DNA of 64,000 nt from a virus: IMG/VR virus record IMGVR_UViG_3300031485_000046; one strand, 5' to 3'. The first letter of the stretch is position 1. Each line of letters begins with the position of its first letter. Of the stretch, positions 1 through 17,336 are shown piece after piece. The position numbers and the translations under genes are program-made. A model generated the notes under the pieces. That model was not told the origin of the DNA, did not search any database, and was given only the letters and a program-made list of their open reading frames with translations.

Positions 1-1001
1 AGTGTTTTGACAGAAGGACTGTACTCTAGCCAAACAGCACCTCGTATTCTATCACAATTCCTACATGGTTTATACTCTGGATAATCTTGTTTTGCTTCCA
101 TCAGCATATCAAAGGTAATCTTCTTTTGTTCCATATCCGGATCAAACAAACGAATACCATATTGTTCTCTTGCTGATAGTTCACAATCATCCGTTTGGTT
201 ATACCAACAATCTACGCAAGGTATTTGTCGTTCTCCGCAATATCGCTCCCTATCACTTCTCTTCGCAAGATATACAGCCATCCTTCTTAACTGTTGTTTT
301 TCCGTCATATCGCCTGCTTGAAAAAAAGCTACGTTATTCCCGTTCATCATCGCCCGCATAGCGAATTCAAGGAGCCAAAATGTTTTTCCCCTCTTTTCCG
401 GGCCTGTAATCGCTATGAAAGCGCCTCTAGTAAGTTGGTCGTTCCAGAACTGTCCTAATGCTTTAGGAAATCGTATCAATGATTCGCTTTGTTCTGTGAA
501 GGCTTGCTTTATCAGCATAGGATCAGCAAATGGATCTATAACATGCGAAGATTCATCATCTCCTGACGGGACAAAAGACAAGGCTTCTTTTTCTGCTGAA
601 ACAATATCTCCTTCCTCCACATAATTCATTATGGATTCAGCGTATTGTTTCAACCGTTGGGTGCTGAAATACTGCTTAGTCTGGTCAATAAGATAATCAG
701 AATTGAAATTACCAGCATCCTCGTATTCTTCGTTCAAAGATTCTAGGATTTCGCTGATATACTCAATATCATCTTTCTGCATACCTTTCTTTATCTTCTC
801 CGTGAATATGCCTTCAATATCACGGAACGGAGCTTTATTATATTTCTTGAAGTAATCCACACACCAACTGGATAATAATTTAGCCGTAGATGCTTCCATG
901 TAATGGATTGACCATATCGGAGCGATAGCACGAATAAAATCATCGGACACGATTAAGCCAATAAGGATTTTTCGTTCTATGAATTTATCTGGCTTTTCCA
1001 T
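1..1001 (-). CDS. DnaB/gp4-family replicative DNA helicase, partial (C-terminus beyond window start)
   Basis: Minus-strand frame open from ATG 1001..999 to the window edge (own translation and stop scan; absent from ORF track because unterminated). Walker A 'AITGPEKRGKT' near 381..413 and DnaB-like 'FFQAGDMT'. SD AGGAGGG upstream; directly downstream of DnaC-like loader. Confidence 0.6.
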   Translation of the reverse strand, partial: MEKPDKFIERKILIGLIVSDDFIRAIAPIWSIHYMEASTAKLLSSWCVDYFKKYNKAPFRDIEGIFTEKIKKGMQKDDIEYISEILESLNEEYEDAGNFNSDYLIDQTKQYFSTQRLKQYAESIMNYVEEGDIVSAEKEALSFVPSGDDESSHVIDPFADPMLIKQAFTEQSESLIRFPKALGQFWNDQLTRGAFIAITGPEKRGKTFWLLEFAMRAMMNGNNVAFFQAGDMTEKQQLRRMAVYLAKRSDRERYCGERQIPCVDCWYNQTDDCELSAREQYGIRLFDPDMEQKKITFDMLMEAKQDYPEYKPCRNCDRIRGAVWLEYSPSVKT

Positions 1002-1011
1002 TTAGGCCCTC

Positions 1012-1662
1012 CTACTCGTTATTGTAATGGTACTTTATGATTTGTGAGCACATCCGTCCAATTCTAGATGGTATCCTAGCATCATCCATCATTTCAGACA
1101 ATCCTTCAATGGACACGTTGCTAGTAAATATGGTTGGGCGCAAATATTCATATCGGGTATTTATCAACTTGTATATTTTCTCATAATTAGCTGGATTGAA
1201 TATTCCCTTTTCCACTCCAAAATCATCTAATACTAATAATGGAATTTGAGATGCAACCTCTATGGGAGTGGCTAAAGCCCAGTCACGGTGATTGTGCTTA
1301 CTTTCTTTGTCCAGCAAATCTGCCATAGAAGTGAAAATAAAATTCCTAGATGTATTCTGGATATATGCTCTTTTCATTATTTCCACATATATGAACATGG
1401 CTAGTACAGTTTTGCCTGACCTGGGTTGATTATGCCATATGTATATCCCGCTACCTTCAGTAGCTGTCATGGCATCCGCAATCTTACTAACCTTTTGCTT
1501 GATAGATTTGGATGAATACGTTTCCAATTCTTTGAGCATTCTAGGAGTAAAATGCCCTCGCAAATGCATTTCAATAGGATGATTGTCCCATACATTTTCC
1601 CTTGCACAAAACTCGCATACTGTAAACTTATATTCTCTTCCGCATTTGTTGCACATACTCAT
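1012..1662 (-). CDS. DnaC/IstB-like AAA+ helicase loader
   Basis: 216 aa; N-terminal CxxC..CxxC zinc ribbon; Walker A 'QPRSGKT', Walker B 'LLVLDDFG', sensor-1 'FTSN', Arg-finger region 'RIPSRIGR'. Confidence 0.7.
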   Translation of the reverse strand: MSMCNKCGREYKFTVCEFCARENVWDNHPIEMHLRGHFTPRMLKELETYSSKSIKQKVSKIADAMTATEGSGIYIWHNQPRSGKTVLAMFIYVEIMKRAYIQNTSRNFIFTSMADLLDKESKHNHRDWALATPIEVASQIPLLVLDDFGVEKGIFNPANYEKIYKLINTRYEYLRPTIFTSNVSIEGLSEMMDDARIPSRIGRMCSQIIKYHYNNE

Positions 1663-1682
1663 AGGTATCCCTCCTTACAGGA

Positions 1683-3098
1683 TTATTCTGACTGAATCAC
1701 ATTACCCAACGCATCATAAAACACTATCTTTTCATCCACATGGAGTTTATTCTTTCCATTATGTCTTCGTATCCTGCTACGGAAATCTTCTATCATCCGA
1801 TATTTTTTTACGAATTCTTCCATATCTCGTACTACGGGCATATAATCCATAGTTTTGTTATGAATATGCCATGACAGCAAAGTAGATAAATTGGCGGGCG
1901 GAACCTCCTCAGACATACTGAATCGGTACAAAGAATTTGCCCATTTCAGTATTGGCGGATTCTTGGTTTTCAATGATTCTGCTAATTCTCTAGCCATTTC
2001 GACGAACGCCGGAGGCGTATTGTCGAGGGCTAATGAATAATAAAACCAGCTGAAAGCTGTTTTAGTACCTTCTTTATCTCTGGATGCAAACTCATTCCAA
2101 AGTAGGTTTGGAAGAGATACTTTTCCGGTTTCTTTAGATTTATTCCTACTTGTAACTGCTGTAAGCAGGAGATTCTTAATCTCTTCCGTTGTCCATTGTT
2201 TTCTCAGGTAAACCTGGTCGATCTTAAAGGTTTGGAAGAACTCTCGTAATTCTTTTCTTGGTTGATTGTTCTTCATGCTGACTATCGGTATTCCCTGCAA
2301 CAATGCTGAAAGCATCTTGCAGGCGGATTGTATCGTTTTACTCTTTGGATCAAGGTTATGCTTTGTCACATTTGGAAGAGTATTCCAATAAGAAATTATT
2401 TCTGAATTAATATCAGATAAAACACTGGCGGACACGCATGTGTCCGATAAAGTTTTTATTCTTGTATCTTCTTTAGAAGATACAGGAAGAATAACTTTAG
2501 TTATTCTTTTGTATTTGTTTATATGTTTATTAGGTTTATATTGTGCCTCGGTGTTAGGCGTAATGTTAGCATTGATGTTAGGAGTAATGCTGTGAGTGTC
2601 ATTTTCGATACTCTGGGCGAAAGCTGTTCGTACAACTGAATCGGTACGTTCATTGACCTTTTCTACGGGTTCTGTAGAAGGTGTAAATAGTTCTATCAGC
2701 TTCAACGGGTTTATTTTGTACCATTCTTTTGCAGGTAAACCTCTGAATTCCGATTGCATTACACCTTTTTGAATAAGGATCTTTTTTGCGTATATCACAA
2801 ATTGTCCAGAAAGGTGCCCTTTTTCATACAGGTCCTTCTTGGTATAGTAAAACCATCCTTTATGATTAGGGTACTTCTGCATGTTATACATACACATTTC
2901 AATATACATGGATACAAGTCCAGCAAACATCCATCCGTACTTTTTGACCAATTCTTTGTTAACGGTATAATAGCTGATTTTACATACCAGGCGATTCATT
3001 ATTTCGCATTCCTGTTCGTAAGTCAATTCTTTACATTTACCATATTTCTTTTGTAAAGATTCAATGGTTATTTTTTTATCTTTTTTTATTTTTTCCAT
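1683..3098 (-). CDS. hypothetical protein; possible replication initiation/organiser protein (start uncertain: 3098, 3122 or 3173)
   Basis: Long ORF (track 1683..3173) upstream of loader/helicase pair; no catalytic motif recognised; role inferred from gene order only. Confidence 0.45.
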   Translation of the reverse strand: MEKIKKDKKITIESLQKKYGKCKELTYEQECEIMNRLVCKISYYTVNKELVKKYGWMFAGLVSMYIEMCMYNMQKYPNHKGWFYYTKKDLYEKGHLSGQFVIYAKKILIQKGVMQSEFRGLPAKEWYKINPLKLIELFTPSTEPVEKVNERTDSVVRTAFAQSIENDTHSITPNINANITPNTEAQYKPNKHINKYKRITKVILPVSSKEDTRIKTLSDTCVSASVLSDINSEIISYWNTLPNVTKHNLDPKSKTIQSACKMLSALLQGIPIVSMKNNQPRKELREFFQTFKIDQVYLRKQWTTEEIKNLLLTAVTSRNKSKETGKVSLPNLLWNEFASRDKEGTKTAFSWFYYSLALDNTPPAFVEMARELAESLKTKNPPILKWANSLYRFSMSEEVPPANLSTLLSWHIHNKTMDYMPVVRDMEEFVKKYRMIEDFRSRIRRHNGKNKLHVDEKIVFYDALGNVIQSE

Positions 3099-3607
3099 GG
3101 CAATACATCTCTCGCTTTCCATGCACAATAATACAACATACTTGTACAAGATGCCGCAGGAATATAATACCATGTAACAGATTTTTTGAATCGTTTTTCC
3201 TTTTCAATCTTGATAAAGTTAATGGATTGTAGAAATTTAATAACCTCCCGTATCTTTTTAAGCGGGAATAGCGTTCTCTCTTGCATTTTTCGTAAAGGGT
3301 ACGTAAACCAGATATTTCCTTGTTTATCTTCATGGTACTTATCTATCTCATCTAATTTTCGTTCTGCTGGATATAAATAGTAATGATCATACCCGGAATT
3401 TCCGTATGTGTCTTCCGCTATTTGTTTGGCTTCTATCATTAGTGAAATGATTACTGCCGTTTCAGTACCCATTATTTTAAGGATATTTGAGTCAATCATA
3501 ATCCTATCCATCCCACATAGATTCCATGCTACTTTTTCACGAATATCGGAAGTTATTTCCTTTCCATATACTTTCATAAATGTTTCCATATTCGGTAAAC
3601 TTTCCAT
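3086..3607 (-). CDS. hypothetical protein
   Basis: 173 aa ORF with strong SD (GGAAGGAGG) before ATG at 3607; first gene of minus-strand replication cluster. Confidence 0.6.
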   Translation of the reverse strand: MESLPNMETFMKVYGKEITSDIREKVAWNLCGMDRIMIDSNILKIMGTETAVIISLMIEAKQIAEDTYGNSGYDHYYLYPAERKLDEIDKYHEDKQGNIWFTYPLRKMQERTLFPLKKIREVIKFLQSINFIKIEKEKRFKKSVTWYYIPAASCTSMLYYCAWKARDVLPWKK

Positions 3608-3647
3608 TTATGTACCTCCTTCCGAAAAACCTTCAGGCCCTCCATTG

Positions 3648-3688
3648 TTAAAAAAGAGCGGAGGTTTTCAAAATTTGGCAACCTCCGC
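3648..3688 (-). terminator. putative rho-independent terminator (minus strand)
   Basis: 9-bp stem GCGGAGGTT/AACCTCCGC (3658..3666 / 3680..3688) with 13-nt loop, followed on minus strand by T-run; loop is long so moderate support. Confidence 0.4.
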
Positions 3689-4081
3689 CCTTCCCACGCC
3701 CCTAATTCGTGTTTTTGTTTTTTGGAACAATGATGGTGAAACTTTTGCTTTATTTACTCGAAACCTTTGTTGCAAGAATGACTGTTTCTGCTTGTCAGGA
3801 AATGAAAATCGTCATCATTTTCACATCCAAACTAGGATGATTACAATTATAAAATAGAATGCTGTTGTGCCGCACCTAGATCGGCCTAAGATTTTTGGTG
3901 AGTACATTCTATTTTATTTTTGTAAAATCCAAGCAGGCGTGTTCACTCTTTTGGAGCAAAACTACAGCCTCCTTTCATGTGTTTCAAGATATGGAGCTAA
4001 TCTCGCTTCGTGCGAGAATGCATATTATCATACAATAGAAATTTGTCCTAGTAAAGTTGTCGAAATATTGATAGCAACGGC

Positions 4082-4150
4082 AGAGAAACGTATAGCGCCT
4101 TGCGTTGCATACGCATGGCGGAGAAACGGTCGGCGGAGAAACGGAGAAAC
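4082..4150. repeat. iteron cluster GGCGGAGAAAC (2 full copies at 4117..4127 and 4132..4142 plus partial GAGAAAC copies)
   Basis: Direct 11-mer repeats spaced 15 nt in the 3608..4319 intergenic region beside replication genes; same 11-mer recurs at 16411..16449. Confidence 0.6.
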
Positions 4151-4319
4151 TCCGCTCCTAAATCTCTGCATGGATCTCCGGAGTGCCTTCTGGATTCCTG
4201 AAAACGGTAATACTGCTTACCTCAGAAGTTATACCTGTTCCAGAATCGTATACCTTTAAGCGGTGCTGGAACAAAGGTATTGCCAAATTGAGAAGCCTTA
4301 CCGCGTCTTCTAATTCCAT

Positions 4320-4574
4320 TTACTGTTCCACCTTTGTCATAATTGTGGTACCGCCCATTTCTACAAACAGGATTGTATATTTACCTTCTGTTTTTTTGGC
4401 ATACTTGTCGAAAAAGGCCATAAACGTAACAAATTCCATACATATTGTCCGTACTACCGTAGGAACGCCTTCTGGAGTAGTTGCCCATTCCACATTAATG
4501 CTGATAATACCGTCTGGTAACTGGATTCTATCTGTTTTAGTTATCAATTTATAAATCTTAATCCTTTCGTCCAT
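4320..4574 (-). CDS. hypothetical protein
   Basis: 84 aa ORF, no recognisable motifs. Confidence 0.45.
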   Translation of the reverse strand: MDERIKIYKLITKTDRIQLPDGIISINVEWATTPEGVPTVVRTICMEFVTFMAFFDKYAKKTEGKYTILFVEMGGTTIMTKVEQ

Positions 4575-4859
4575 TTTTATACCTTCTCCTTTCTATTATG
4601 AAAAATAGACTGATAACCACACCTATTACTTCCACGGATTTCATGTTTCCTTGGTTGGTACGCTATAGCCTTTACTTTCAAGCTATAGTTTCATGTCTTT
4701 TTTGCTACCTAGTGATCCTGAGCGATTCTAGAGCCAAGGTTATACTTCTCGTTTACATCTATCCGATATATAATACACAGGTAATTCTTTTCCTTCAGAT
4801 GATGGAAAGAAAAAAAGTAGAATATATTAATCAGCTATATTTTTCACAAACGAATATGG

Positions 4860-4889
4860 GTAAAAAGAAGGCAAGGTACTGCCTTCTTC
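4860..4889 (-). terminator. rho-independent terminator after primase gene
   Basis: 8-bp stem AGAAGGCA/TGCCTTCT (4866..4873 / 4880..4887), 6-nt loop, T-run on minus strand, immediately 3' of primase stop (4890..4892). Confidence 0.55.
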
Positions 4890-5798
4890 CTAAATCCAAC
4901 CTAGCAATTCTTTCTTCAAGGCATCCGCGTCAGTTTGTGCCATATCACCGGGGTCACCTTGTATTTTTATAGAATAGGCATCCACGCCTCTAAGTATAAG
5001 TTCCGCAGTCAATTTTTCCGATTGTTTTATTGCCTGCGGATCATCATCGAATACCACAAATACTTTCTTGAACCTTTTGCTTATTTCCCTTACCTGATAT
5101 TTAGTGTATTTTATCCCAAAAGTAGCAATAGCACCGTACCCAAATCTCCATGCGTCTGTGACACCCTCCACACAAATGCAAGCATCATAATCCTTAATTG
5201 GTATCGCTTGGTAAAATACGTGCTTGTGTTTTACTATCTCTCGTTGTTCTGGACACGTTATATAGCGGAGGGAATGCTTGGCAGTAATATCCCTCGTCTG
5301 AAAAGACACAATACGATTTTCCCAATAGATGGGAATAACTAATCTGTGGGAGAATGATATTCCATCCATAAGACTGATAGGACCTGTGCCTTGTACATCC
5401 CATATCTTTTCGATTACCTCTGGATTAAACTTTCTTTTGGTAAGGTATCTTTTATGACGATCGTTCATTGGTGCAGTAGAAGGAGGCAGTCTGAATTTTT
5501 TCTGACCGACTCTTACTGTTACAGTAGATTTTACATGACTCTTACCTCCGTATTTCCTTGCTATTTCCTTTGCTTCTTTCTCTGATACGTGTATAAGTAG
5601 TGCTAGAGCTTTATGGGTCGCTTTCCAACCGCATCTCCAACAGACATAAAAATCATCCGCCATATTGTATCCTAAATGCATTCCTGGATTACCAATGCAA
5701 AAAGGGCAGGTCGTATTGACCCACCCTTCCCGACAATGTTTATGCCCTTCCGTAGCAAATGGTACGTTAAAATCCTTGTACAATTGGATTATATTCAC
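4890..5798 (-). CDS. DNA primase (zinc ribbon + TOPRIM)
   Basis: 302 aa; Cys4 zinc ribbon 'CPFC...CWRCG'; TOPRIM motifs 'EGVTDAW' and 'VVFDDDPQ', 'GDPGD'. Confidence 0.75.
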   Translation of the reverse strand: MNIIQLYKDFNVPFATEGHKHCREGWVNTTCPFCIGNPGMHLGYNMADDFYVCWRCGWKATHKALALLIHVSEKEAKEIARKYGGKSHVKSTVTVRVGQKKFRLPPSTAPMNDRHKRYLTKRKFNPEVIEKIWDVQGTGPISLMDGISFSHRLVIPIYWENRIVSFQTRDITAKHSLRYITCPEQREIVKHKHVFYQAIPIKDYDACICVEGVTDAWRFGYGAIATFGIKYTKYQVREISKRFKKVFVVFDDDPQAIKQSEKLTAELILRGVDAYSIKIQGDPGDMAQTDADALKKELLGWI

Positions 5799-6360
5799 GG
5801 CAATCCTCCTGCATTAGGGCTTTCAGTTCGTTTATCGTATCCCAAATTCTTTCGTGTGTCCAACCTTTCTCTCTGAGGATGTGGCGCAATTTCCCACGAA
5901 CTGCTCTACCGCTCATGCTACCATATTCTTCTTGTGCCTCTATAATCATATCATATACGATTTTGGCAGAAGGACTCATACGATCCATCTTTTCTTCCCA
6001 TTCTTCTTTAGCATCTACCGATTCAGGTGATGGTATAGTATATTCCATTTCTTCATCGAAAAAAGTACATGGAACCTTTTTCTGATGATACAGGTAATTG
6101 TTCAGTTTGGATTTTACGCACAAGGCAATCCAATTTATCAATGGTACGTTTTTATCCGCTTTGTATGTATTCAAGGCAACTGTATAGCCAACTGTAGCCT
6201 CAGAAAAAAGTTCCTCAAAATCTACTCCAGAGGTTTTATTGTACGACCAAGCTAATTTCCTTAGAAAGTTCTGGTACTTTTTATAGGTAGCGGTATCAGT
6301 CACAATATATTCCTCCTTTAGGATTTTCTGCTGTACTTGTGATGGTGTGGGCAGTAACAA
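5767..6360 (-). CDS. putative sigma-70-family-like transcription factor
   Basis: 197 aa; segment 'FLRKLAWSY..FEELFSEATVGYTVALNTYKADKNVPLINWIALCVKSKL' resembles sigma region 2; weak, motif-level only. Confidence 0.4.
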   Translation of the reverse strand: MLLPTPSQVQQKILKEEYIVTDTATYKKYQNFLRKLAWSYNKTSGVDFEELFSEATVGYTVALNTYKADKNVPLINWIALCVKSKLNNYLYHQKKVPCTFFDEEMEYTIPSPESVDAKEEWEEKMDRMSPSAKIVYDMIIEAQEEYGSMSGRAVRGKLRHILREKGWTHERIWDTINELKALMQEDCREYNPIVQGF

Positions 6361-6536
6361 CGCCTATCAGAACGTAACACCAACCAATCCGCTTTTTTAG
6401 CACGGAAGACGCATTCTTCAAACGTATCACCAACAAATATCGCCTTGCGTTTATACTTGTGGGAAGAGCAATATCTACAATCACATACCATTTCCATGTA
6501 GACTCTATCTCCCCACGTCACTCCCACAATAATCAT
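6318..6536 (-). CDS. small Cys/His-rich hypothetical protein
   Basis: 72 aa ORF between SNF2 helicase and sigma-like gene; CDC..C and CYCPHHH clusters; may be spurious. Confidence 0.3.
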   Translation of the reverse strand: MIIVGVTWGDRVYMEMVCDCRYCSSHKYKRKAIFVGDTFEECVFRAKKADWLVLRSDRRCYCPHHHKYSRKS

Positions 6537-6541
6537 AATAC

Positions 6542-8569
6542 CTACTCCGCATAGGAATTCAGCATCGCGGTAAGCATAGAGCCTTCAGGAACATCTTCCC
6601 CATCCAGTACCGCAGTAATCACCTTTCTCTTTTCATCTATCATTTCTGCCAACCTTTCTTCAATTGTGCCTCTGGGAAGAAGATACCAAATGTTGACAGC
6701 ATTTTTTTGTCCAATACGATTGCACCTGTCCTCCGCCTGATCTAGGAGCCCAGGTGTCCAAGGCAGTTCAAGGAAAGCTACGTTGTGGGAAGCGGTAAGT
6801 GTGATACCTACTCCAGCCGCCTTAATATTACCTACGAACAATCTTACGGAAGGGTCATTCTGAAATCTATCCACTATCTCTGCTCGTTTTTGGGCAGATA
6901 CAGACCCGTCTATTTTTACCGCAATCCCTGTATTGAATTCATCCATAATGGCTGATATGATTTCCTTGTGGACAGCAAACACTACAAGTTTATGGGAAGT
7001 ATCGTTCAGGAAATCTTTAATCCATTCAATCGCACCCTTTAATGCACCCTTAGCCGCCATAAACCTAAGAGCAGAAATCTGGGCAAGTGCTTCCGCATTA
7101 GAAGCCTTAGCCGCTGCCAACGCACCTTTATTTTCAGTAACCCAACCAATAAAATCTCTTTCTACCTTTCGATATTCCTTCTCATTAGACAAGGCTACAG
7201 GGATGACTGCTCTCTGCTTAGGTGGCAATTCTGTCAGGACTTCTTCTTTCCTTCTACGGATCATAACTCCCTGAAGTTTTTCGTACAATTCTTCGAGATT
7301 AGAAGCACCATTGTAATCCCAACCGAATCCATTGTGCTTGGCATCGCAGTACCGATTGGCAAAGTGCATGAAATTAGGAAAGAGATTAGGTTCTACCATG
7401 CGGATAGCATTGTATATCTCCTTAGGCCGATTGATTACGGGTGTTCCTGACATAGGAATAATATGAGGGATCCTTTTTGCCAATGCTTTCACGGCTTTGG
7501 TTCGGATAGTAGCATTGTTCATTATTGCCTGACATTCATCCAGTACCAGCACCTTAGGACTAAGGCTTGCAAGGTATTCTTGCCATCCTGCCACTATATC
7601 ATAATTAAGGATGATTATGTCAGGGTTATCAAGTTGGTATGCCTTTTTTCCTTCAAGTACAACTGCCTTTCTATCATCAGAAAGGCATCCTTTCACTTCT
7701 TTCAGCCAATTATATTTTACCACTGCTGGTGAAATGACAATAGTAGGCTTCAGTTCAGGATGGGCATGAATGTAGGCAAGGGCTTGAATAGTTTTGCCTA
7801 GTCCCATATCATCTCCAATTATTGCTTTACCATTCCGATGTTCCAAAAAAGCTACTCCCTGTGCTTGGAAAGGGTACAGCTTTTTCTTCAAACCTTCTAT
7901 ATTCGCTTCCTTCATATCATGGACAGATTTCTCTATCCTTGATATGATGTTCACCAGCCCTTCATCAATAGAGAAACCCCATTCTTTTACCTGTTTGATA
8001 GAGGCAGGCGAAGCAGAAGCAACCCAATACTTTTCGGTTTCCTTGCTGACAAATGACCTGTTAGGAAGCGATTTTACCTTCCCAAGCAGATCACCTGTAG
8101 GCTCGAAGGTTAGTTTCATCATATCGCCAGCGACTAATGTGGCGATACTTTTCTGAGGTTCCCGATTACCATCGTAGGATTTGTGAGTAGAAGGCACCTG
8201 AACAGTTCCCGCGTCCTCGTAGGCTATGAGAACAGATTTAGGGAACCAAGAATCAACAACCTTGCTTCTCGTAACACCTTTTGCCATCTCGATCTGTTCT
8301 GGCGTAAGGGATTCAAGAACAAGGTCACGCAAGCCCCAGTCCTTAAGACACTCAGGACCAATGCCAATGAGTTTAGAACCGGGATGGGTAAGTGCTCTTC
8401 CACATTTGGAACAACGAACTTCTGGATCAATCTCACCGTACCCGTATAGGTAAACTGCTCTTGCAGTTTCCCTAAGGATTGCGGCTTTGAAGTATATTGG
8501 TACACCTTTCTCTCTTGCTACTATGGGTCTGGTTCGATAGAACTTTGCAGGCAGCTCCATGAATGTCAT
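6542..8569 (-). CDS. SNF2-family DEAD-like helicase/ATPase with N-terminal zinc ribbon
   Basis: 675 aa; motif I 'DDMGLGKT', motif II 'VLVLDECQ', helicase C motif 'DQAEDRCNRIGQ'; N-terminal 'CSKCG...C' ribbon. Confidence 0.85.
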   Translation of the reverse strand: MTFMELPAKFYRTRPIVAREKGVPIYFKAAILRETARAVYLYGYGEIDPEVRCSKCGRALTHPGSKLIGIGPECLKDWGLRDLVLESLTPEQIEMAKGVTRSKVVDSWFPKSVLIAYEDAGTVQVPSTHKSYDGNREPQKSIATLVAGDMMKLTFEPTGDLLGKVKSLPNRSFVSKETEKYWVASASPASIKQVKEWGFSIDEGLVNIISRIEKSVHDMKEANIEGLKKKLYPFQAQGVAFLEHRNGKAIIGDDMGLGKTIQALAYIHAHPELKPTIVISPAVVKYNWLKEVKGCLSDDRKAVVLEGKKAYQLDNPDIIILNYDIVAGWQEYLASLSPKVLVLDECQAIMNNATIRTKAVKALAKRIPHIIPMSGTPVINRPKEIYNAIRMVEPNLFPNFMHFANRYCDAKHNGFGWDYNGASNLEELYEKLQGVMIRRRKEEVLTELPPKQRAVIPVALSNEKEYRKVERDFIGWVTENKGALAAAKASNAEALAQISALRFMAAKGALKGAIEWIKDFLNDTSHKLVVFAVHKEIISAIMDEFNTGIAVKIDGSVSAQKRAEIVDRFQNDPSVRLFVGNIKAAGVGITLTASHNVAFLELPWTPGLLDQAEDRCNRIGQKNAVNIWYLLPRGTIEERLAEMIDEKRKVITAVLDGEDVPEGSMLTAMLNSYAE

Positions 8570-8592
8570 GGTTTAATGCCCTCCTTTGGATT

Positions 8593-8904
8593 TTAGATGA
8601 GTTTCTGGTTCCTATTTAGCATTCCCTTCAGTTCATACTCCTTTTTTAACTTGTGGTAATACAAGTGCCAATCTGGAAGGGGATTCATGTGCAATTTCCC
8701 ATCCCCCGATTCTGAAATGAACCATACTGCAAATCCTAACTTTCCTGAATACCGAACGAGGAACTGGTCCCCGTTCTCGTTCATCCGCACCGCGTAACTC
8801 CAGCGGATGGTTTCTCCGCGGGCCTTCATATTCCGCATGGAAAAATGCTGATCGCCTTGTGATATAAAGGCCCTACGAAGTTCGTTTACCGTATACTTTT
8901 TCAC
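8593..8904 (-). CDS. hypothetical protein
   Basis: 103 aa ORF in tightly packed minus-strand operon. Confidence 0.5.
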   Translation of the reverse strand: MKKYTVNELRRAFISQGDQHFSMRNMKARGETIRWSYAVRMNENGDQFLVRYSGKLGFAVWFISESGDGKLHMNPLPDWHLYYHKLKKEYELKGMLNRNQKLI

Positions 8905-9246
8905 CTACATACCCTCCTTTATTCCGTATCTTTTTACTACCTCAAGTCTGCCACAAGGTATACCCCCTATTTCAAATTCTACATAATCCTCTTCCTTTAC
9001 CATAAATGTGATATTGGACAATCTTACGGTAGGTTTCAACAGGTATTTCTTTATAACCTTTTTAAGTAGTTTATCCGTAGTCCATGTTTCCTCGTCCATT
9101 GTTAAAGGGGAATCGTGTTTCCATTGATCATTGACTTCATATCCCTCTTTTTTGTTGCCCCATACATCATACAGCCATATCTGAACATCCATATACTTTT
9201 GTTCCATCTTTAGTCCCCCCTTCATATTGATAAGGTACAAGAGCAA
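8905..9246 (-). CDS. hypothetical protein
   Basis: 113 aa ORF; true start may be the internal Met near 9207. Confidence 0.5.
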   Translation of the reverse strand: MLLYLINMKGGLKMEQKYMDVQIWLYDVWGNKKEGYEVNDQWKHDSPLTMDEETWTTDKLLKKVIKKYLLKPTVRLSNITFMVKEEDYVEFEIGGIPCGRLEVVKRYGIKEGM

Positions 9247-9300
9247 GGTATGATACTATTTTATTTCATAGTGTAATAATATCATACCTTTTTTGTTATG

Positions 9301-10068
9301 TCAAACGCCAGTTGTGTCTGGCTTCATTATTTCATCAGCAATATACATACCATTTCTGGAAAACACTTCGCCTAATTTCACAAGCCCTTCAATAATTTCC
9401 TTTTCATCCGTTAGCTCCTCGTAAAAATCCCTAAGTTTTAGAAAGGTATACCTAGAAAGCATTTTTATATAATGAGTTAGCCGTTCCTCTAGCAAGGAAA
9501 TATTTCTCTGAATAGTATCCATTACCTCATCAGATACAGGTACAAGAATCCCCTCACCAATATCCGTTGAAGGAAATAGGGTGTTTTCATGGCAGTATAT
9601 ATTAGTGGAGCCGGAAATATAAATATCTAACTTTCCTAGATATTCAACCTTAGTATATTCCACATTAGGGAAGGGGTGTTCTACATACGAAAGTATCCTA
9701 TAAACCAAATCTGGATATGTTTGTTCAAGATGGTGCCAGAATGATCCAAACCCTCGAAAGGTACGGCAATCTTTCTCTACCGTTTTTTCAAACCATTCTT
9801 CATGCCAGCTACCAACTGCTTGAGGAATATCTGTATCCTTGAGGACACAAGTAATTCTAGCACCATCATTCTTACAAGGATACGTAAAATCAGAATGTTC
9901 AAAGCCAATAAATGTTATCCCTTGCAATTTAAGAAACAACCGTACCTCTGCATAAAAATGCTCGTCCCATTCCTCGGGAAGCTCTACCTTATATTCCGCA
10001 AGTGCCTTTCTCTGGATATTGGCGTCCAATTCATTATATCCGTACACTCGTATTTTCCTGATTTTCAT
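9301..10068 (-). CDS. hypothetical protein
   Basis: 255 aa ORF, no recognised motifs. Confidence 0.55.
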   Translation of the reverse strand: MKIRKIRVYGYNELDANIQRKALAEYKVELPEEWDEHFYAEVRLFLKLQGITFIGFEHSDFTYPCKNDGARITCVLKDTDIPQAVGSWHEEWFEKTVEKDCRTFRGFGSFWHHLEQTYPDLVYRILSYVEHPFPNVEYTKVEYLGKLDIYISGSTNIYCHENTLFPSTDIGEGILVPVSDEVMDTIQRNISLLEERLTHYIKMLSRYTFLKLRDFYEELTDEKEIIEGLVKLGEVFSRNGMYIADEIMKPDTTGV

Positions 10069-10231
10069 ATCCTACACCCTCCTATTCTGATATGGTGTAG
10101 GTTAATATTTTCTTTACCTGCATGTTCTTTTTCCTCCTTTGCTTTCTGGATAGCCTTTATAACCTCGTCAATGTCCTTATACAGGTATACCACATTATTT
10201 ATGGTTATTTTGTGTATCATACCTTTTCCTC

Positions 10232-10534
10232 CTATCCTTTGCAAAAAGAGTAAAATACCTTAGCGCATTCTCCATCCTTACTAAGGTGGATAAGGTTTGC
10301 CGTAAACATCGAAGAACAGGCAACGGCGTGTATTTCCATTCCGCATAGTGCCGATTCTTCCTTGAACCCATTTGGGCTTGTGGTAAATTCATCAAGCCAG
10401 ATTCTCTGATTCCTGTATCTAACATAGGGAGAAGATACATCCATATTACCATGCTCTTTGTTTACCGCATATTTGATTTCCTGCCAATGGTTACTGCCGA
10501 AGATCACCATTTTAGCATTTTCCCAATGTTTCAT
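10232..10534 (-). CDS. hypothetical protein
   Basis: 100 aa ORF whose start overlaps upstream stop (ATGA), typical operon coupling. Confidence 0.5.
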   Translation of the reverse strand: MKHWENAKMVIFGSNHWQEIKYAVNKEHGNMDVSSPYVRYRNQRIWLDEFTTSPNGFKEESALCGMEIHAVACSSMFTANLIHLSKDGECAKVFYSFCKG

Positions 10535-10824
10535 ACCTGCACCATCCTTTCTAGGATAGAAAACTCCTTCTCCAATACCTTTAGGGCCGTGTAAATATGG
10601 TCATCATTGTAATCCTTACTGTAAAACAAACTGGATATAGCAAAATCATTTTTCCTGTTTACAAAACCAAATATATCGAATAGTATTCTTCTCCTAAAAT
10701 CTTTGTAGTCACCCCGTTCCTTTATCCATTTGGCATACCCAATGGCTTCTTCTTCTGGCGTAGTAGCAAGAAATTTAGCCATTTCCTCTTTCAGGTACTG
10801 GTAGTCTTCAGGCGTGATTTTCAT
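10531..10824 (-). CDS. hypothetical protein
   Basis: 97 aa ORF, operon context. Confidence 0.55.
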   Translation of the reverse strand: MKITPEDYQYLKEEMAKFLATTPEEEAIGYAKWIKERGDYKDFRRRILFDIFGFVNRKNDFAISSLFYSKDYNDDHIYTALKVLEKEFSILERMVQV

Positions 10825-11076
10825 TTACCTTTCCTCCTGAGGATTATACGTATGATCGAAAATGGTGCAATGGTCCGCATTGTAAACCCTTATCCTAAGA
10901 GTCCCATCTTCCTGAGGAATGCAAGATATACGAAGTATCTTATTTGGCTCACCATTTTCCTTTACGAAAAGATCCGTGGCCATTTCCCCTGTTTTACTTC
11001 TGGGACCACCTGCAAGCAAAGTTTCCCTACCTTCAATTTCTGACCTGATCCAAAAATTTCTGATAGTCATACCCAA
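10825..11076 (-). CDS. hypothetical protein
   Basis: 83 aa ORF, operon context. Confidence 0.5.
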   Translation of the reverse strand: MGMTIRNFWIRSEIEGRETLLAGGPRSKTGEMATDLFVKENGEPNKILRISCIPQEDGTLRIRVYNADHCTIFDHTYNPQEER

Positions 11077-11471
11077 AGCTCTCCTTCGTCATTATCCACC
11101 TTGAGGTTTCCGTCTTCTTCAAGAATCCATTTCACGGGATGGTATTGAGGATTGATGTCCTTCATCATTACCATCCTTGTATCAGTAATCATGGCAACAT
11201 ATCCGCTTACTAGCTTCTGTCCTTTGGCGTTGCATAGGAAGAGTGTAGTGTTTCCTGCCGATCCTACGCCTAGTCCGAGGTAAATTGCGTCCTCATTTTC
11301 GTTGAATCCAACGAAAATGGGTGTAGGGGAGTGTGTGACTCCCCCCTCCGTGTCTACTTCTGGCTTCTGCAAACGGGTGACCTGAATATCATCACCCTCT
11401 GCCGTAATGCGGTACCGGTTTCCATCTATATTTACTATTTTCTTTGCCATTTTAGTTATCCTCCTCTTCAA
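11067..11471 (-). CDS. hypothetical protein
   Basis: 134 aa ORF, overlapping neighbours by 10-20 nt. Confidence 0.55.
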   Translation of the reverse strand: MKRRITKMAKKIVNIDGNRYRITAEGDDIQVTRLQKPEVDTEGGVTHSPTPIFVGFNENEDAIYLGLGVGSAGNTTLFLCNAKGQKLVSGYVAMITDTRMVMMKDINPQYHPVKWILEEDGNLKVDNDEGELWV

Positions 11472-11844
11472 AGTTTACCAACTCAGGCAGATACTTCCTG
11501 AGTGCGGGCAGACTGTAGAAAAACCTTGACGGTTTTCCTGTACCTGTTCTTGCCCTGAGGCATCCACCGCCTTCAGGGTAGAGGCTCATGGAGATCATGC
11601 GCCCGTTGGTGAAAGTGCCCTTCCAGGTAAGAGTTACCCTTCCAAAAATGTCTTCCTTAACTTCGATGTCAGGGTTGGGTTCCTCCCCTCTGACCTTTTC
11701 AAGTACCTCTACCCCTATTGAAAGGGGCCCGTAGGTGGTGATTTCTTTGCTGGGAGTGCCCCAGCAGTGGAGCATCCACCTGGCAAACTCGTGATATACC
11801 CTTTCTGCCTCCCTCGGGTCTTTTATGGTACGCCTTTCATCCAT
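11452..11844 (-). CDS. hypothetical protein
   Basis: 130 aa ORF, operon context. Confidence 0.55.
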   Translation of the reverse strand: MDERRTIKDPREAERVYHEFARWMLHCWGTPSKEITTYGPLSIGVEVLEKVRGEEPNPDIEVKEDIFGRVTLTWKGTFTNGRMISMSLYPEGGGCLRARTGTGKPSRFFYSLPALRKYLPELVNFEEEDN

Positions 11845-11845
11845 G

Positions 11846-12100
11846 TTAGTTATCCTCCTTTGCGGCTTTTCTGAAAACCGCCTTCAGCAGCTCGTGTCCT
11901 TCTTTTGAGATGCCTTTAATGTACTCTACCTTACCGCCGGGCTTCCTGGTATTTCTAGGGGCATCATGTATAATGAAGAGCCCTGCCCTTCCGTACATTA
12001 GCCTAGTTTCTTTGCGCGGATCATCCTCGCTTCTTTTCGAGGCGAGGATGATTTCAACTACCTGTTCGAGATGGTTTCTTACTGTCCTCATGGTACACAT
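11846..12100 (-). CDS. hypothetical protein (first gene of minus-strand early operon)
   Basis: 84 aa ORF adjacent to divergent promoter region 12101..12347. Confidence 0.5.
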   Translation of the reverse strand: MCTMRTVRNHLEQVVEIILASKRSEDDPRKETRLMYGRAGLFIIHDAPRNTRKPGGKVEYIKGISKEGHELLKAVFRKAAKEDN

Positions 12101-12238
12101 TCCTCCTTTGGTTTTCTGTACTAAGGATTAGGTTGTCAAGGGTCACGGGTTTGTGCTCACTTCGCTGTCTGATGCTATTCTCTCATACCATATTTGATAT
12201 GTCAAATGTCCAGTTTGTCAAACAATAGAGTCTTTTTA

Positions 12239-12267
12239 TTGACAGGATACGGTTAAGGATATATACT
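12239..12267 (+). promoter_or_regulatory. sigma70-like promoter TTGACA-N17-TATACT upstream of terminase genes
   Basis: TTGACA 12239..12244, 17-nt spacer, TATACT 12262..12267; SD GAAAGGAG and ATG 12348 downstream. Confidence 0.6.
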
Positions 12268-12347
12268 ATTTCAATCTACCTGTAATATTTTCATCTCGAA
12301 AAAATGTATATAATAGAAGCCAATTTTGAAAGGAGTGTTTCATACAC

Positions 12348-12914
12348 ATGGCATATCGAAAATCAGGGAGACCTTTAGCAGTAGCAGAACCGTGGAATGA
12401 ATCAATCCCAGAAAGGGCGTATGATCTTTGCCTTCTAGGATTGCGTGATGCCGATTTAGCCACGGCATTCGGAGTTTCTATATATACCATTGATAAATGG
12501 AAACAGACTCATCCAGAGTTTAGAGAAGCACTATCCAGAGGTAAAGAACAAGCTGACGCTAAAGTGGCAGACGCACTTTACCATAAGGCAGTAGGCTATG
12601 CCCATAAAGCTGTGGACATCAGAATAGTTGACGGCGAGGTAGTGAAAATACCATACACTAAAATCTATCCACCAGATACTACTGCCTGCATATTCTGGTT
12701 GAAGAATAGGCAAAGACAGTACTGGACGGATACCAAGCAAAATGTTCATACTGGTACAGTGGGTGTGGAACATACTATGAGACGTCAACTTGACCTTTCT
12801 GATTTCTCCAAAGAAGAACTTGCCCTAGCAGAAAAACTAGCCTCTAGGATGCTTCAGGAGGGTACTCAGGATGCAGAGTTTACAGAAGAGGGGGAGAATG
12901 ACGGGGATGAGTAA
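12348..12914 (+). CDS. terS: terminase small subunit
   Basis: 188 aa directly upstream of and overlapping large terminase; HTH-like N-terminus 'LATAFGVSIYTIDKW' and 'IFWLKNRQRQYW' segment typical of small terminases. Confidence 0.65.
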   Translation: MAYRKSGRPLAVAEPWNESIPERAYDLCLLGLRDADLATAFGVSIYTIDKWKQTHPEFREALSRGKEQADAKVADALYHKAVGYAHKAVDIRIVDGEVVKIPYTKIYPPDTTACIFWLKNRQRQYWTDTKQNVHTGTVGVEHTMRRQLDLSDFSKEELALAEKLASRMLQEGTQDAEFTEEGENDGDE

Positions 12915-14466
12915 ATATGAACGTAAGGACGCCTTAAAACGCCAAAGAGAAAACATCATCCCAAAATCAGATAGGTTCCAAGCATTACTTTTGAACCCAT
13001 TGCAGATAAAAGCAGAAAAATGCCGTAGGTCCCTATTTGAATTTATGAAAGAATTCTGGCCAGAAGTATCCACAAGTGACCCTACATGGAATTGGCATCT
13101 AGAATACCTAGCTAACGAACTGGAAAGGATGATGTATAGAGTAGCAAACAGACAACCAAAAGAATACGACCTCATAATAAACATAAGCCCCGGTACCACA
13201 AAGTCTACCCTATGTTCCATAATGCTGAATGCATGGGTGTGGGCTAAATGGCCTTGGCTCCGATTCATCAACGCATCCTATTCTGGAGCCCTATCTCTGG
13301 AACATTCAGAATTGTGTCGTGACCTTATACGGTCAGAACGATACAAAAGGTTATTCCCGTATTTGGAAATAAAGCAAGACAAGGATACCAAAACTAACTT
13401 TAAAATTTTATATGATGAAGAGCGTCTGGATTCCATAACAGGCGAAGCATCTACACTAAAAAAGAGTGGTGGTAACAGATACTCCACCTCCGTAGGCGGC
13501 ACCTTGACTGGATTCCATGCTGATGTACTGTTAGTAGACGATCCATTGGATCCGCAAAGAGCTGTATCCGACGTGGAAGTCCTTAAAGCCAACACATGGA
13601 TAGATCAGACACTATCTACCAGAAAGGTAGATAAAGCGGTAACACCAACCATAATCATAATGCAAAGGCTCCATCAGAATGACCCTACGGGTTATCTGCT
13701 ATCCAAGAAGAATAAAAAGATAAAGCATATCTGCCTACCAGGTGAAATACGGAATTACAGGAAAAATTTGAAACCTAAAGCCCTAGCCAAGTATTATAAG
13801 GATGATCTGTTCGACCCTATAAGAATGCCATGGAAAGTCCTTGACGACCTAAGAGTAGACCTTGGTGAATTCGGGTATGCTTCCCAGATCGGCCAATCCG
13901 CAGTATCAGACAAGGGCAACTTATTCAAGGTAGAACACTTTCAAATCATCCATAGTATGGTACCAGACCCAGACATAGTAAGATCCATACGATACTGGGA
14001 CAAAGCCGGTACAGCTGGAGCTGGAGCATACACGGTGGGGGTACGAATGCTTGCATTGAATAATGGAAAATTCCTTATCACGGATGTTAAAAGAGGGCGG
14101 TGGTCCACAGAACAACGGGAAGCCATCATCAGACAGACTGCAGAAGCCGACGGTACAGACACAATAATCTGGCATGAACAAGAACCAGGTTCAGGCGGAA
14201 AAGAATCCGCAGAAGGCACTATAAGAAACCTAGCTGGATACACCACGTATGCAGATAGGGTAACTAGAAACAAGGAAATGAGAGCGGATCCATATTCAGT
14301 CCAAGTAAATAATGGTAACGTACTGTTACTATATGCTCCGTGGAACCAAGACTTCATAGAAGAGCACAGATACTTCCCAAATTCAACATATAAGGATCAG
14401 GTAGACGCAGCCTCAGGAGCGTTCTCTAAGGCAGTACGGAAAAAGATAGCCGGTGCGATAGGATAA
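12907..14466 (+). CDS. terL: terminase large subunit
   Basis: ~520 aa; ATPase P-loop-like 'NISPGTTKST', acidic 'LLVDDPLD', C-terminal nuclease-like region; SD AGGGGGAG before ATG 12907 (track ORF starts 12871). Confidence 0.8.
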   Translation: MSKYERKDALKRQRENIIPKSDRFQALLLNPLQIKAEKCRRSLFEFMKEFWPEVSTSDPTWNWHLEYLANELERMMYRVANRQPKEYDLIINISPGTTKSTLCSIMLNAWVWAKWPWLRFINASYSGALSLEHSELCRDLIRSERYKRLFPYLEIKQDKDTKTNFKILYDEERLDSITGEASTLKKSGGNRYSTSVGGTLTGFHADVLLVDDPLDPQRAVSDVEVLKANTWIDQTLSTRKVDKAVTPTIIIMQRLHQNDPTGYLLSKKNKKIKHICLPGEIRNYRKNLKPKALAKYYKDDLFDPIRMPWKVLDDLRVDLGEFGYASQIGQSAVSDKGNLFKVEHFQIIHSMVPDPDIVRSIRYWDKAGTAGAGAYTVGVRMLALNNGKFLITDVKRGRWSTEQREAIIRQTAEADGTDTIIWHEQEPGSGGKESAEGTIRNLAGYTTYADRVTRNKEMRADPYSVQVNNGNVLLLYAPWNQDFIEEHRYFPNSTYKDQVDAASGAFSKAVRKKIAGAIG

Positions 14467-14522
14467 ACATATAAAGGTAACCAAACAGATAACCCGTTTA
14501 GCCGTAGGCTATAGGGATAAAT

Positions 14523-14568
14523 AATGATACAGATAGATATGGATTCACCTATCTGTATCATTTTTTTA
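14523..14568 (+). terminator. rho-independent terminator downstream of terL
   Basis: Perfect 11-14 bp stem GATACAGATAG/CTATCTGTATC (14526..14536 / 14549..14559), 12-nt loop, TTTTTTT run 14561..14567. Confidence 0.75.
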
Positions 14569-15078
14569 TGGTAAAATACTCATACCGTAAGGTAAGCTAT
14601 GATATAGTAAAAATTGGGTAGTTTGGTAGTTATAGAGGTAGTCAGATAGAATAGGAAAAAAACTATCCATAAAAATAACATAGATAGGTAGACTAATATG
14701 GTATAATCTATAGAAACCTATATATCAATACAATCCATACTTTTACTATCCAAATAAGCTAATAATCCAATATAATCCAGATAATCCTAAACAGGTACAT
14801 ATAGTCAATTATAATAAGATACAGAAGAGGCAATCCCAAATCATACTAAGATGGTATACCAATATATCTGATACACCATATAACCTATCTCATGTAACCA
14901 TACGAATATGCATATGGATAAACAGTAAGAACGACATAATACAAATATACACCAATTCAATCAAGCTAATAGGAACATACGCAATAAGCTAATATCCGAT
15001 AAGCCTAAACAGGTACATAGTCAATATCAATATCTAGTCAATAGTAAACTAACATGCGAGCCTCCCTAAGGTAGGTCC

Positions 15079-15104
15079 CATAAATTGGTACCATAAATTG
15101 GTAC
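15079..15104. repeat. tandem 13-bp repeat CATAAATTGGTAC x2 (contains GGTACC palindrome)
   Basis: Two adjacent identical 13-mers read directly. Confidence 0.6.
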
Positions 15105-15439
15105 CATATCCTGGTTTACCAGCATGTGGTAACCTTACCTCCATCCTTACCATCACCTATACCACCATTCATCTGGATCTAATCTGCCTATACCCATATT
15201 TAATCTATGGTATTTAATAAATGGACACCATATTTCATAAATGGATAGCCAAAACCATACAAGCCATATCCTATTCCGTATTCCAATCCAATATATAGAT
15301 ACCTATACCTCCACTTCACCATGTACTGGGAAACCCAGTAATTGGTATAAAAAAATGGGACCTAAGTGTGGTAACCTAGATTTATCTATGTATGATCGTT
15401 TATATAGTGAAACCGAGATTTATACCTATTATTTTGTCC

Positions 15440-15900
15440 TCCACTATACCAATACGGTGGTATGCTGGATTGTAATCAGGAAATTCAAATACGGAGTAGA
15501 CCTCGATGTTTTACTATGTATATATAGAACGTATCTTTATAACAGTACCTACCAACTATCCACTACGGTGGTGTGTTGGATTGTACTTATAAATATGTGG
15601 AAAATAGAAAATGGGAGGTATTTCGATGTTTTACTATGTAGAACCGACGGTCTGTTTTTGTCAGGAATCTTCCAACTATCCACTACGGTGGTATATTGGG
15701 AGATACTTACCGAAACGTGTATGATATGAAATGGGAGGTATTTCGATGTTTTACTATGCATATATAGAGATATTGATTGGTTCCCATTTACCCTATATCT
15801 TACCCAGTATCCACTACGGTGGTATGTTGGGTAGTATTAATCCGTAGTATGGGTAGGTACTGTCTAGATTGTTTATCTATATATAGAGAATGAATAAGGT
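15440..15900. repeat. ~110-130 bp tandem repeat array, 4 units, each with blocks 'CGATGTTTTACTATG' and 'TATCCACTACGGTGGT'
   Basis: Block A at 15504, 15624, 15744; block B at 15451, 15560, 15680, 15811; track ORFs 15241..15729(+) and 15549..15761(-) merely translate the repeats. Confidence 0.75.
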
Positions 15901-16410
15901 GTGTCCATTCCCAAAATACCTCAGGCCCTCCATTATCTAGAATTTTCCCCAATTATAAAAATTTGTCAACCTCTGGCAGCTAAATGGAGTATAAGTATCC
16001 TACGGATACATGTATAAAAATGAAATCTTGGACACGTATCCAACGGATTATTTTATAAAAATGGGATTGGATTATTTTTATTTATACAGGTTCAATTTGA
16101 GAAAATGCACCTGTTTGAGTTTTCGATGGGTAATTGGTATAACAATAGTTGGATTATATAAAAACGGTATGGGATAATACCAGACCCGTTTTGAAGGCAT
16201 AAATTGCATAAATCAGTTCCGTTTATTTTTTTATTTCCTATGGATGGTACCGAATATTTCGAGGAGAAAAGGAATCCATAAAAATCATACGAGGTTTTTC
16301 ATGCTACCTAATCCAAAATACGTGGCGAATTTTCGGCTCCGTAATCGTTTTTCTAGAGGTGAGCGGTGAATTCATACCGGTAGAAAATGAGCGCCTTCTA
16401 GCGCACCGCT

Positions 16411-16449
16411 GGCGGAGAAACTCATTGGCGGAGAAACTGGCGGAGAAAA
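16411..16449. repeat. iteron cluster GGCGGAGAAA(C) x3
   Basis: Copies at 16411..16421, 16427..16437, 16439..16449; same 11-mer as at 4117..4142. Confidence 0.65.
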
Positions 16450-16457
16450 TGGATGGA

Positions 16458-16548
16458 TTTTTCTGTTTTTCTGTTTTTCTGATTGTTGTACATCGTTTCT
16501 ACATTCTACATTCTACATTCTACATTCTACATTCTACATTCTGCATTT
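16458..16548. repeat. microsatellite-like tandem repeats: TTTTTCTG x3 then TACATTC x6-7
   Basis: 8-mer repeats about 16458..16482; heptamer array 16500..16541 with a degenerate seventh unit to 16548. Confidence 0.7.
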
Positions 16549-17060: not shown

Positions 17061-17191
17061 AAGCGATACTGTGATCGAATTGTATCTGAATGACTATACA
17101 ATTCACTATTATTTTATAAAACTCTATAGTATTGCAGAATACAGTAGAATTCAGTAGAATTATATTAAGTGTATAGTCTTTTCATGCATAG

Positions 17192-17219
17192 TTGACATTC
17201 TATCGTAGAGTGCTATACT
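17192..17219 (+). promoter_or_regulatory. sigma70-like promoter TTGACA-N16-TATACT
   Basis: TTGACA 17192..17197, TATACT 17214..17219, ~120 nt upstream of small gene start 17337. Confidence 0.55.
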
Positions 17220-17336
17220 GTACTCGTAGCAAGCGAGCGAGCAAGTTCTTTGACAACTGAAGAAGCAAGCTCATAACAGAGTAACACTTCTTCAGAACAT
17301 ACGCGCACAACGTTGCGCAGAAAGAGAGTGTGTAGC

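Follow-up and report, generated by a model that had tools for sequence, protein, structure and literature searches.

Same-strand repeats at two distant, paralogous cassettes of an uncultured phage genome: candidate iterons for a replication protein

The direct repeats of iteron plasmids lie on one strand and are bound by winged-helix initiators; where there are two arrays, one belongs to the origin and the other to a control locus or the rep promoter, and classical iterons of this kind are approximately 17–22 bp long and regularly spaced. A second iteron locus is familiar from P1 (incC and incA), F (incB and incC) and R6K (gamma with alpha and beta), and in these systems the repeats and the Rep protein co-evolve. 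The satellite phage P4 likewise needs the same short repeat at two loci, ori and crr, both of which are bound by its alpha protein. In phage SPP1, 12–13 kb separate oriL, which is found within gene 38, from oriR, whose place is among the late genes; each is composed of direct repeats with an AT-rich unwinding element and is bound by gp38, and gp38 at oriR has been proposed to stall forks, leading to concatemer synthesis (PMC6316719, PMC3485210). The phage DNA described here resembles SPP1 in having one set of direct repeats at two distant loci of similar organisation, one near the initiator gene and the other in the late region, where it interrupts the packaging and head genes, and in having loader and DnaB-type helicase genes after the initiator gene. 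It is routine for iterons to stand beside an initiator gene, and SPP1, P4 (ori/crr) and plasmid control loci are precedents for a second, distant array; what is new is the instance itself, with its unusually short, irregularly spaced core, its bipartite box, a specificity swap at both loci and a repeat type that is decoupled from the N-terminal domain of the initiator.

Exact copies of the 11-mer GGCGGAGAAAC start at positions 4117, 4132, 16411 and 16427, all on the plus strand, and there is no further copy in the window (the whole 64-kb stretch of DNA that was analysed). Only 0.02 copies are expected, and none of 100 dinucleotide-preserving shuffles reached four; the degenerate form GGCRGAGAAAM occurs at six sites (4079, 4117, 4132, 16411, 16427 and 16439), three per locus, against an expectation of 0.11. 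These figures bear out the view of the first-pass annotation that the repetition exceeds chance, and of the five copies that it had counted four are indeed exact, the fifth, at 16439, ending in A. The repeats form two clusters, locus A (4079–4150) and locus B (16379–16449), both of which include one-mismatch and partial copies, so that A holds four copies in 72 nt and B three to four in 71 nt, every one on the plus strand. The following copies were distinguished.

4079–4089, plus strand: one-mismatch iteron of locus A, GGCAGAGAAAC, with A at position 4; kept in L002, L053 and L054
4117–4150, plus strand: two locus A iterons GGCGGAGAAAC and a partial copy GGAGAAAC, the latter at 4143–4150
16379–16389, plus strand: degenerate copy of locus B, GGTAGAAAATG, with AGCGCCTT next to it, as after the 4079 copy at locus A
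16411–16449, plus strand: main cluster of locus B, with two copies of GGCGGAGAAAC, starting at 16411 and at 16427, followed by GGCGGAGAAAA at 16439 (16 and 12 nt from start to start)

The spacings between repeats (8, 12, 15, 16 and 38 nt) show no helical phasing and differ among relatives. The repeat unit is short, with an 8-bp core extended to 11 bp in the window, and the comparison of relatives given below points to the 8-mer GGAGAAAC, rather than to the 11-mer, as the core under selection. A search for DnaA boxes with up to one mismatch gave 25 matches against 20.5 expected, with no cluster at either locus. We consider it probable that the GGAGAAAC repeats are iterons for a phage replication protein at two paralogous origin-type cassettes; that they are bound, by which protein, that they have origin function and that they have a role in looping or fork arrest is what we infer from the arguments that follow.

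The first of these arguments concerns the genes among which the repeats lie. Every gene from approximately 12.1 kb down to position 1 is carried by the minus strand, and a DnaB-like helicase gene is interrupted by window position 1. The genes at the right end of the window (QueC, QueF and genes of 323, 196, 335 and 423 aa) extend the series of genes that in relatives comes after DnaC/DnaB, and because right-end gene order thus carries on from the left end we regard the map as circular, of approximately 64.7 kb, and the window as nearly the whole of it. The count of the 11-mer is therefore essentially genome-wide, which is the check that the first-pass annotation had proposed, and GGCGGAGAAAC is confined to loci A and B. 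The genes that matter for the argument are as follows.

1012–1662, minus strand: DnaC/IstB-like helicase loader, with the DnaB-like helicase gene next
1683–3098, minus strand: initiator, 'O-like' or DnaD-like, conserved in its C-terminal domain but variable in its N-terminal winged helix; candidate iteron binder
3086–3607, minus strand: protein S, 173 aa, a stand-alone paralogue of the N-terminal winged-helix domain of the initiator; candidate iteron binder
4158–4319, minus strand: conserved 53-aa gene, whose stop codon meets the iterons
4320–4574, minus strand: 84-aa gene
4890–5798, minus strand: primase
5767–6360, minus strand: sigma factor
6542–8569, minus strand: SNF2 helicase
12348–14466, plus strand: small and large terminase genes, with locus B 1.9 kb downstream

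In relatives the gene after DnaC encodes a 512-aa DnaB_C protein (a faint Pfam match). The 53-aa ORF is taken to be a real gene because its variation in relatives is synonymous and a gene is called there in those relatives. Its presence means that 3608–4319, which the first-pass annotation had treated as intergenic throughout, is coding from 4158 to 4319; a gap of 550 nt separates the 53-aa gene from that of protein S. The 4117–4150 cluster borders directly on the 53-aa gene at its stop codon, and in every relative approximately 470 nt separate locus A from the S/initiator operon downstream of it. Locus B, approximately 12.3 kb from locus A, has no initiator gene as a neighbour; it is situated in a 2.8-kb non-coding region (approximately 14.47–17.3 kb), with the terminases before it and the portal gene (21848) after it. 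Elsewhere (56263–58107 and 61931–63188) the genome encodes a family A DNA polymerase with an intein, and its QueC and QueF homologues suggest 7-deazaguanine modification of the DNA; a clamp, a clamp loader, RecA, SbcCD-like proteins and a dUTPase are encoded as well. There is also a GC-rich island at 35000–43000 (52–55% against approximately 40% elsewhere) which carries tail genes, including a 1156-aa ORF (37055–40525).

Set against SPP1, this arrangement differs in several respects. The initiator is not a homologue of G38P (hhalign against SPP1 gene 38 gave a probability of 0.9%), the loader belongs with DnaC/IstB rather than with G39P, locus A precedes the operon promoter whereas SPP1 oriL is within the initiator gene, and the present phage adds a bipartite box at both arrays and has its own PolA, clamp and clamp loader. 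The resemblance to SPP1 is functional and architectural only. P4 differs in that alpha is a primase–helicase fusion, the corresponding functions being separate proteins here, and in the distance between the loci and their context, while iteron plasmids differ from this genome, with its 8-bp core and irregular spacing, in that copy-number control is not to be expected in a virulent phage.

The second argument comes from relatives, which were collected as IMG/VR contigs (L001–L003) and JGI metagenome contigs (L031, L044 and others) and, in addition, by tracing initiator, TerL and TerS homologues to their contigs. They fall into those with GGAGAAAC repeats, as in the window (type 1, T1), and those with ATTTAAGGY, that is, CCTTAAAT in window orientation (T2). 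Initiator identity to the window ranges from 98% down to 46% in type 1, yet every type-1 genome has the core (G)GAGAAAC three to five times at locus A and three times at locus B on the same strand, even as the flanking DNA diverges, variation being found in the three bases that precede the core, in spacing and in the number of 8-nt units. At locus A there is one additional 8-nt unit in L003, L192 and L193, and three stand in tandem in L054. The triplet at locus B recurs with identical spacing in L044, L064, L031, L192 and L193 and as three copies with other spacing in L058–L063. Two genomes may serve as examples: L193 has four copies of GGAGAAAC at A, three at B and one on the opposite strand elsewhere in 14.4 kb, where 0.49 are expected, and L058 has GGAGAAAC, GGAGAAA and GAGAAAC at A with three copies at B, 21 and 21 nt apart.

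In L066–L069 and L191, whose initiators are the most distant (40–43% identity), the locus A position is occupied by three to four copies of ATTTAAGGY, and this array again lies between the stop codon of a small gene and the promoter P1 described below. The same replacement is seen at locus B, where T2 is represented by two contigs, only L191 carrying both loci. L191 has six copies of CCTTAAAT in 12.9 kb, all on one strand, against 0.97 expected; two are at A and four at B, those at B lying approximately 460–550 nt downstream of TerL. L194, whose TerS is 84% identical to that of L067, has three copies 520–600 nt past TerL and none elsewhere. A concerted replacement at both loci is hard to explain without one protein that reads both. 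As far as can be told from sequence, repeats that are non-random, conserved and changed in concert at both loci behave as sites of a replication-module protein; to this extent they agree with the earlier interpretation as binding sites for a phage initiator or repressor.

The proteins whose divergence accompanies the change of repeat are those of replication. T2 genomes are 41% identical to the window in DnaC, 46% in the C-terminal domain of the initiator and 67% in SNF2, the corresponding values for distant T1 genomes being 53–58%, 52–54% and 73–83%; TerL and TerS, by comparison, are 87–89% and 77% identical to the window in T2 against 86% and 70–73% in L058/L059. By these comparisons repeat type follows the divergence of the replication module and not that of TerL/TerS. 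This bears directly on another possible function of the repeats, as recognition sites of the small terminase in a packaging signal of the pac or cos type. Packaging sites often contain short direct repeats, and the terminase genes are 1.9 kb upstream of locus B, but the identity of TerS and TerL is independent of repeat type, the second site lies amid replication genes, and T1 and T2, despite their unrelated repeats, have one and the same N-terminal helix-turn-helix region in TerS, VSIYTIDKWKQ included. Since this recognition domain is essentially invariant between the two types, a packaging signal is disfavoured, and we regard it as very improbable.

Searches beyond this group of contigs delimit the lineage. 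The 'phages' collection gave no match (megablast with 1–20000, blastn with 3400–4400), isolated phages gave no meaningful protein match to the initiator, and TerL relatives in IMG/VR were at most 59% identical and had no copy of the motif. When viral contigs were scanned for the iteron pair, most matches were coding repeats of the AEK/GGE type from unrelated viruses, the true relatives being L007 and L020 only, and in a scan for ATTTAAGGY pairs none of the matches listed was related to the lineage. The single match to the 18-mer CAGAAACAGTCATTCTTG, in L052, lies within a DnaB gene and was set aside as chance. Two side observations concern other viral contigs. The unrelated contig L011 (IMGVR_UViG_3300002098_000165) has a non-coding GGCGGAGA(N3) array at 2241–2400, approximately 840 nt downstream of the gene for a 465-aa protein with a Walker-A-like GAPGAGKS, which is presumably a replication protein of the RepA/AAA_25-like kind; the array may be an independent set of iterons with a similar core. 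In L010 and L015 (IMGVR_UViG_3300027708_000055 and 3300028393_003450) there are two to three copies of an 18-nt tandem repeat, GGCGGAGAAACTCTCCTG, in apparently non-coding DNA.

Similarity between loci A and B extends beyond the iterons, to a bipartite box that is present at both.

3620–3692, minus strand: locus A copy of the box, GGAGGTTGCCAAATTTT...GGGCCTGAAGG..TTTT, its first half being the terminator-like hairpin described below
15908–15979, minus strand: locus B copy of the box, in the same register, with no hairpin and no downstream gene

The two copies align without gaps, in all clades examined, to the consensus cGGAGGTTGGCAAATTTT-N27-GGGCCTGAGG-NN-TTTT. The word GGGCCTGA itself occurs three times in the window, and its third copy (at 25346, coding) lacks the upstream half. 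The distance from box to iterons is 440–520 nt at both loci in the window, and because each array stands at this distance from a conserved box we interpret the loci as paralogous cassettes. Further collinear similarity between A and B is found in AGCGCCTT before the array, between 3620–3685 and 15908–15973, and between 4818–4849 and 16767–16798. The locus B box of L031 is 90% identical to that of the window although its flanks do not align, so the box there appears to be under selection. This weighs on the notion that the similarity of the loci is due to chance or to a functionless, decaying duplication. The loci are paralogous and their collinear similarity is weak, but repeats and box have been kept while approximately 400 nt between them have diverged beyond alignment, the core persists down to 46–51% initiator identity, and in T2 it has been replaced in concert. 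Chance or decay, to which we would have given next to no credence, is refuted by these comparative data.

The DNA between locus A and the gene for protein S is occupied by elements of a different kind.

4027–4055, minus strand: promoter P1, of the sigma-70 type, TTTACT-17-TATGAT with an upstream TG, reading towards the initiator operon
3693–4020, minus strand: RNA-structured, non-coding leader (approximately 380 nt) between P1 and the terminator

All clades keep either the P1 block, TTTACTAGGA-N10-TTGTATGATAATA, or a TGnTATAAT promoter equivalent to it. The leader is regarded as non-coding because relatives differ by frameshifting indels; its predicted structure (3640–4023) has a minimum free energy of −113.9 kcal/mol, with z = −6.3 against shuffles, and six pairs show compensatory changes. 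After it, at 3654–3692 on the minus strand, comes a terminator-like hairpin with a run of T residues, the arms of which change in a compensatory way between clades, and the hairpin is followed by a conserved GGGCCTGARG box, a strong Shine–Dalgarno sequence and the ATG of S at 3607. In Rfam no family reached its gathering score in the window, matches in the leader and at locus B being at chance level; the leader (3640–4023, minus strand) is a candidate attenuator or cis-regulatory RNA. Two other promoters were considered and dropped: 'P2', inside the hairpin, since its −10 element differs between clades, and, by eye, an ECF-sigma promoter with GAAAC as −35 element, for which there is no conserved −10 at a suitable distance. 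A further word, AGAATGCAT, occurs seven times in the window, always on the plus strand (4015, 16553, 16754, 16828, 18724, 36463 and 59417); five of the seven copies are non-coding, among them those in the predicted start region of P1 and in the repeats of locus B, and it is possible that they constitute a second family of operators.

With P1, leader and terminator in place, 3608–4319 is mostly the regulated 5′ leader of the replication operon. The first-pass annotation had proposed this region as a strong origin candidate; it resolves instead into a gene, iterons, a promoter, a leader and a terminator hairpin, and there is no markedly unstable DNA beside the iterons, the flanks of locus A being of ordinary stability (59th–86th percentile of instability in a nearest-neighbour profile). 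The iterons lie 24–95 nt upstream of the −35 element of P1 (approximately −64 to −126 relative to P1, the 4079 copy being the closest, at approximately −64 from the predicted start) and do not overlap the core promoter. It is these features that give substance to the proposal that the repeats are operator or activator sites of a regulator, either the initiator as its own regulator or another phage protein, which would control P1 at locus A and some other transcript at locus B, and have no origin function: the array precedes a promoter that is conserved in every clade, P1 is followed by a leader and a terminator ahead of the replication genes, whence the operon is clearly regulated, and locus A has no unwinding element. 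Yet the locus B array has no P1-like promoter beside it in the window, in L058 or in L191, the arrays keep clear of the core promoter, and iteron type follows the replication module. We judge regulation alone to be unlikely, though it is the most probable of the rivals. Initiators of iteron plasmids do both, binding the origin and regulating, and the two readings are compatible. Returning to the repeats as iterons of a replication protein, we propose that a DNA-binding protein of the replication module would occupy both arrays; at locus A the bound protein would, most plausibly, feed back on transcription of the initiator operon, to which the leader terminator would add a gate. Locus A may thus serve mainly in autoregulation, and could possibly be a second origin too.

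Locus B has surroundings of another kind, as the nearest-neighbour stability profile of its flanks makes plain.

15980–16300, no strand assigned: AT-rich interior of the cassette, from box to iterons, at the 80th–97th percentile of instability
16450–17200, no strand assigned: AT-rich repeats of low stability, comprising (TTTTTCTG)x3, (TTCTACA)x7 and 67–69-nt ATGCAT-rich repeats; candidate unwinding region

The stretch from 16450 to 17200 is above the 90th percentile of instability, the flanks spanning the 90th to the 99.8th, and among all 100-nt windows of the genome only one is less stable than 16629–16728. Iterons beside easily melted, AT-rich DNA are the arrangement to be expected of an origin. 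Because no DNA in the genome is less stable than that on either side of its iterons, locus B is the better candidate for duplex opening, and we suppose that it is here that the duplex would be opened and the DnaB-type helicase loaded with the assistance of DnaC. Several other repeats were observed in this region. The perfect micro-tandems (TTTTTCTG)x3 and (TTCTACA)x7 come directly after the locus B iterons, at 16458–16547, and the block CGTTTCTACATTCT is kept in relatives. The 18-mer CAGCTATATTTTTCACAA, which on the minus strand has a promoter-like TTGTGA-17-TATATT, is found at 4832–4849, 16781–16798 and 16917–16934, that is, in the region between the primase and 84-aa genes and in the 67–69-nt repeats of locus B. 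At 15439–15841, a 41-nt unit with the imperfect palindrome CCAACTATCCACTACGGTGGTGTGTTGG occurs four times, 111–131 nt apart, within a 120-nt tandem repeat in non-coding DNA.

That one motif should occur in two dispersed clusters also recalls the phage-plasmid N15, whose centromeres are dispersed, and the SPO1-type phages, which have terminal repeats of approximately 13 kb; the repeats might on these models be partition centromeres, or mark the boundaries of a long terminal repeat spanning 4.1–16.4 kb. Against partition, neither ParA/ParB nor an integrase or repressor was found among 40 distinct proteins, encoded outside the structural-gene block and several small ORFs, that were searched with Pfam, 20 of them also with PHROGs, and the lineage has no relative among the 185 579 species genomes of GTDB. 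Against a terminal repeat, 4.1–16.4 kb would include the terminase genes, and the assembly shows no such repeat. Both are, in our estimation, extremely improbable, and we return to the repeats as sites of a replication protein and to the question of which protein that might be.

An AF2 model of residues 10–140 of the initiator predicts a winged helix, comprising a helix-turn-helix and a beta-hairpin wing, with a pLDDT of 75–85. The best sequence and fold matches of this N-terminal domain, both below significance (E = 0.06 and E = 0.14, the latter with a probability of 0.95), are RepA_N structures of pSK41 and pTZ2162 RepA (4pt7, 4pql and 5kbj). Initiators of the RepA_N type bind iterons through a winged helix, and their C-terminal domain is unrelated to that of the initiator here; since neither E-value is significant, the match is a lead and not a test. 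The 53-aa protein was dropped as a candidate binder, tblastn finding no homologue of it in L054 or L058. The winged-helix domain of the initiator or of its paralogue S would be the most likely binder of the iterons.

The choice between these winged helices is complicated by a module swap. Where the window (2575–3607) has protein S and an initiator with an N-terminal domain termed N-a, L053 (10001–10500), which is otherwise approximately 97% identical, has an N-b initiator, no S, and identical locus A iterons. N-a and N-b are 22–24% identical in that domain, and L192 and L193, which are N-b genomes, keep type-1 repeats at both loci. Within T1, on the genomes compared, iteron type does not follow the type of the N-terminal winged helix. 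That N-a and N-b genomes share their iterons means either that the reader is another protein or that distant winged helices have one specificity.

A more far-reaching proposal may be built on these observations, namely that the functional unit is the whole cassette of approximately 530 nt, made up of the array, a spacer of approximately 400 nt and the box GGAGGTTGGCAAATTTT-N27-GGGCCTGAGG; each genome of either clade has exactly two such cassettes, and their spacing is conserved. Some factor distinct from the freely swapped N-terminal winged helix would then read the iterons, and the cassettes would pair by looping or handcuffing, coupling expression of the initiator operon, through P1, the structured leader and the terminator at locus A, to firing of the late site beside the terminase genes or to fork arrest there. 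We hold this proposal to be improbable. Were it true, the pairing of cassettes would give the phage a switch of its own by which theta replication passes into concatemer replication; specialists would otherwise be unlikely to be surprised.

For an uncultured phage lineage of approximately 65 kb from biogas and anaerobic-digester metagenomes, which has no cultured relative, this study provides a map of candidate origins and initiator sites. The exchange of GGAGAAAC for CCTTAAAT is a natural swap of specificity that is directly usable in binding experiments. Finally, our data suggest that the design known from SPP1, in which a single initiator serves two distant repeat loci, has arisen again around an initiator of different ancestry, which argues that the layout is functionally selected and is not a peculiarity of SPP1.
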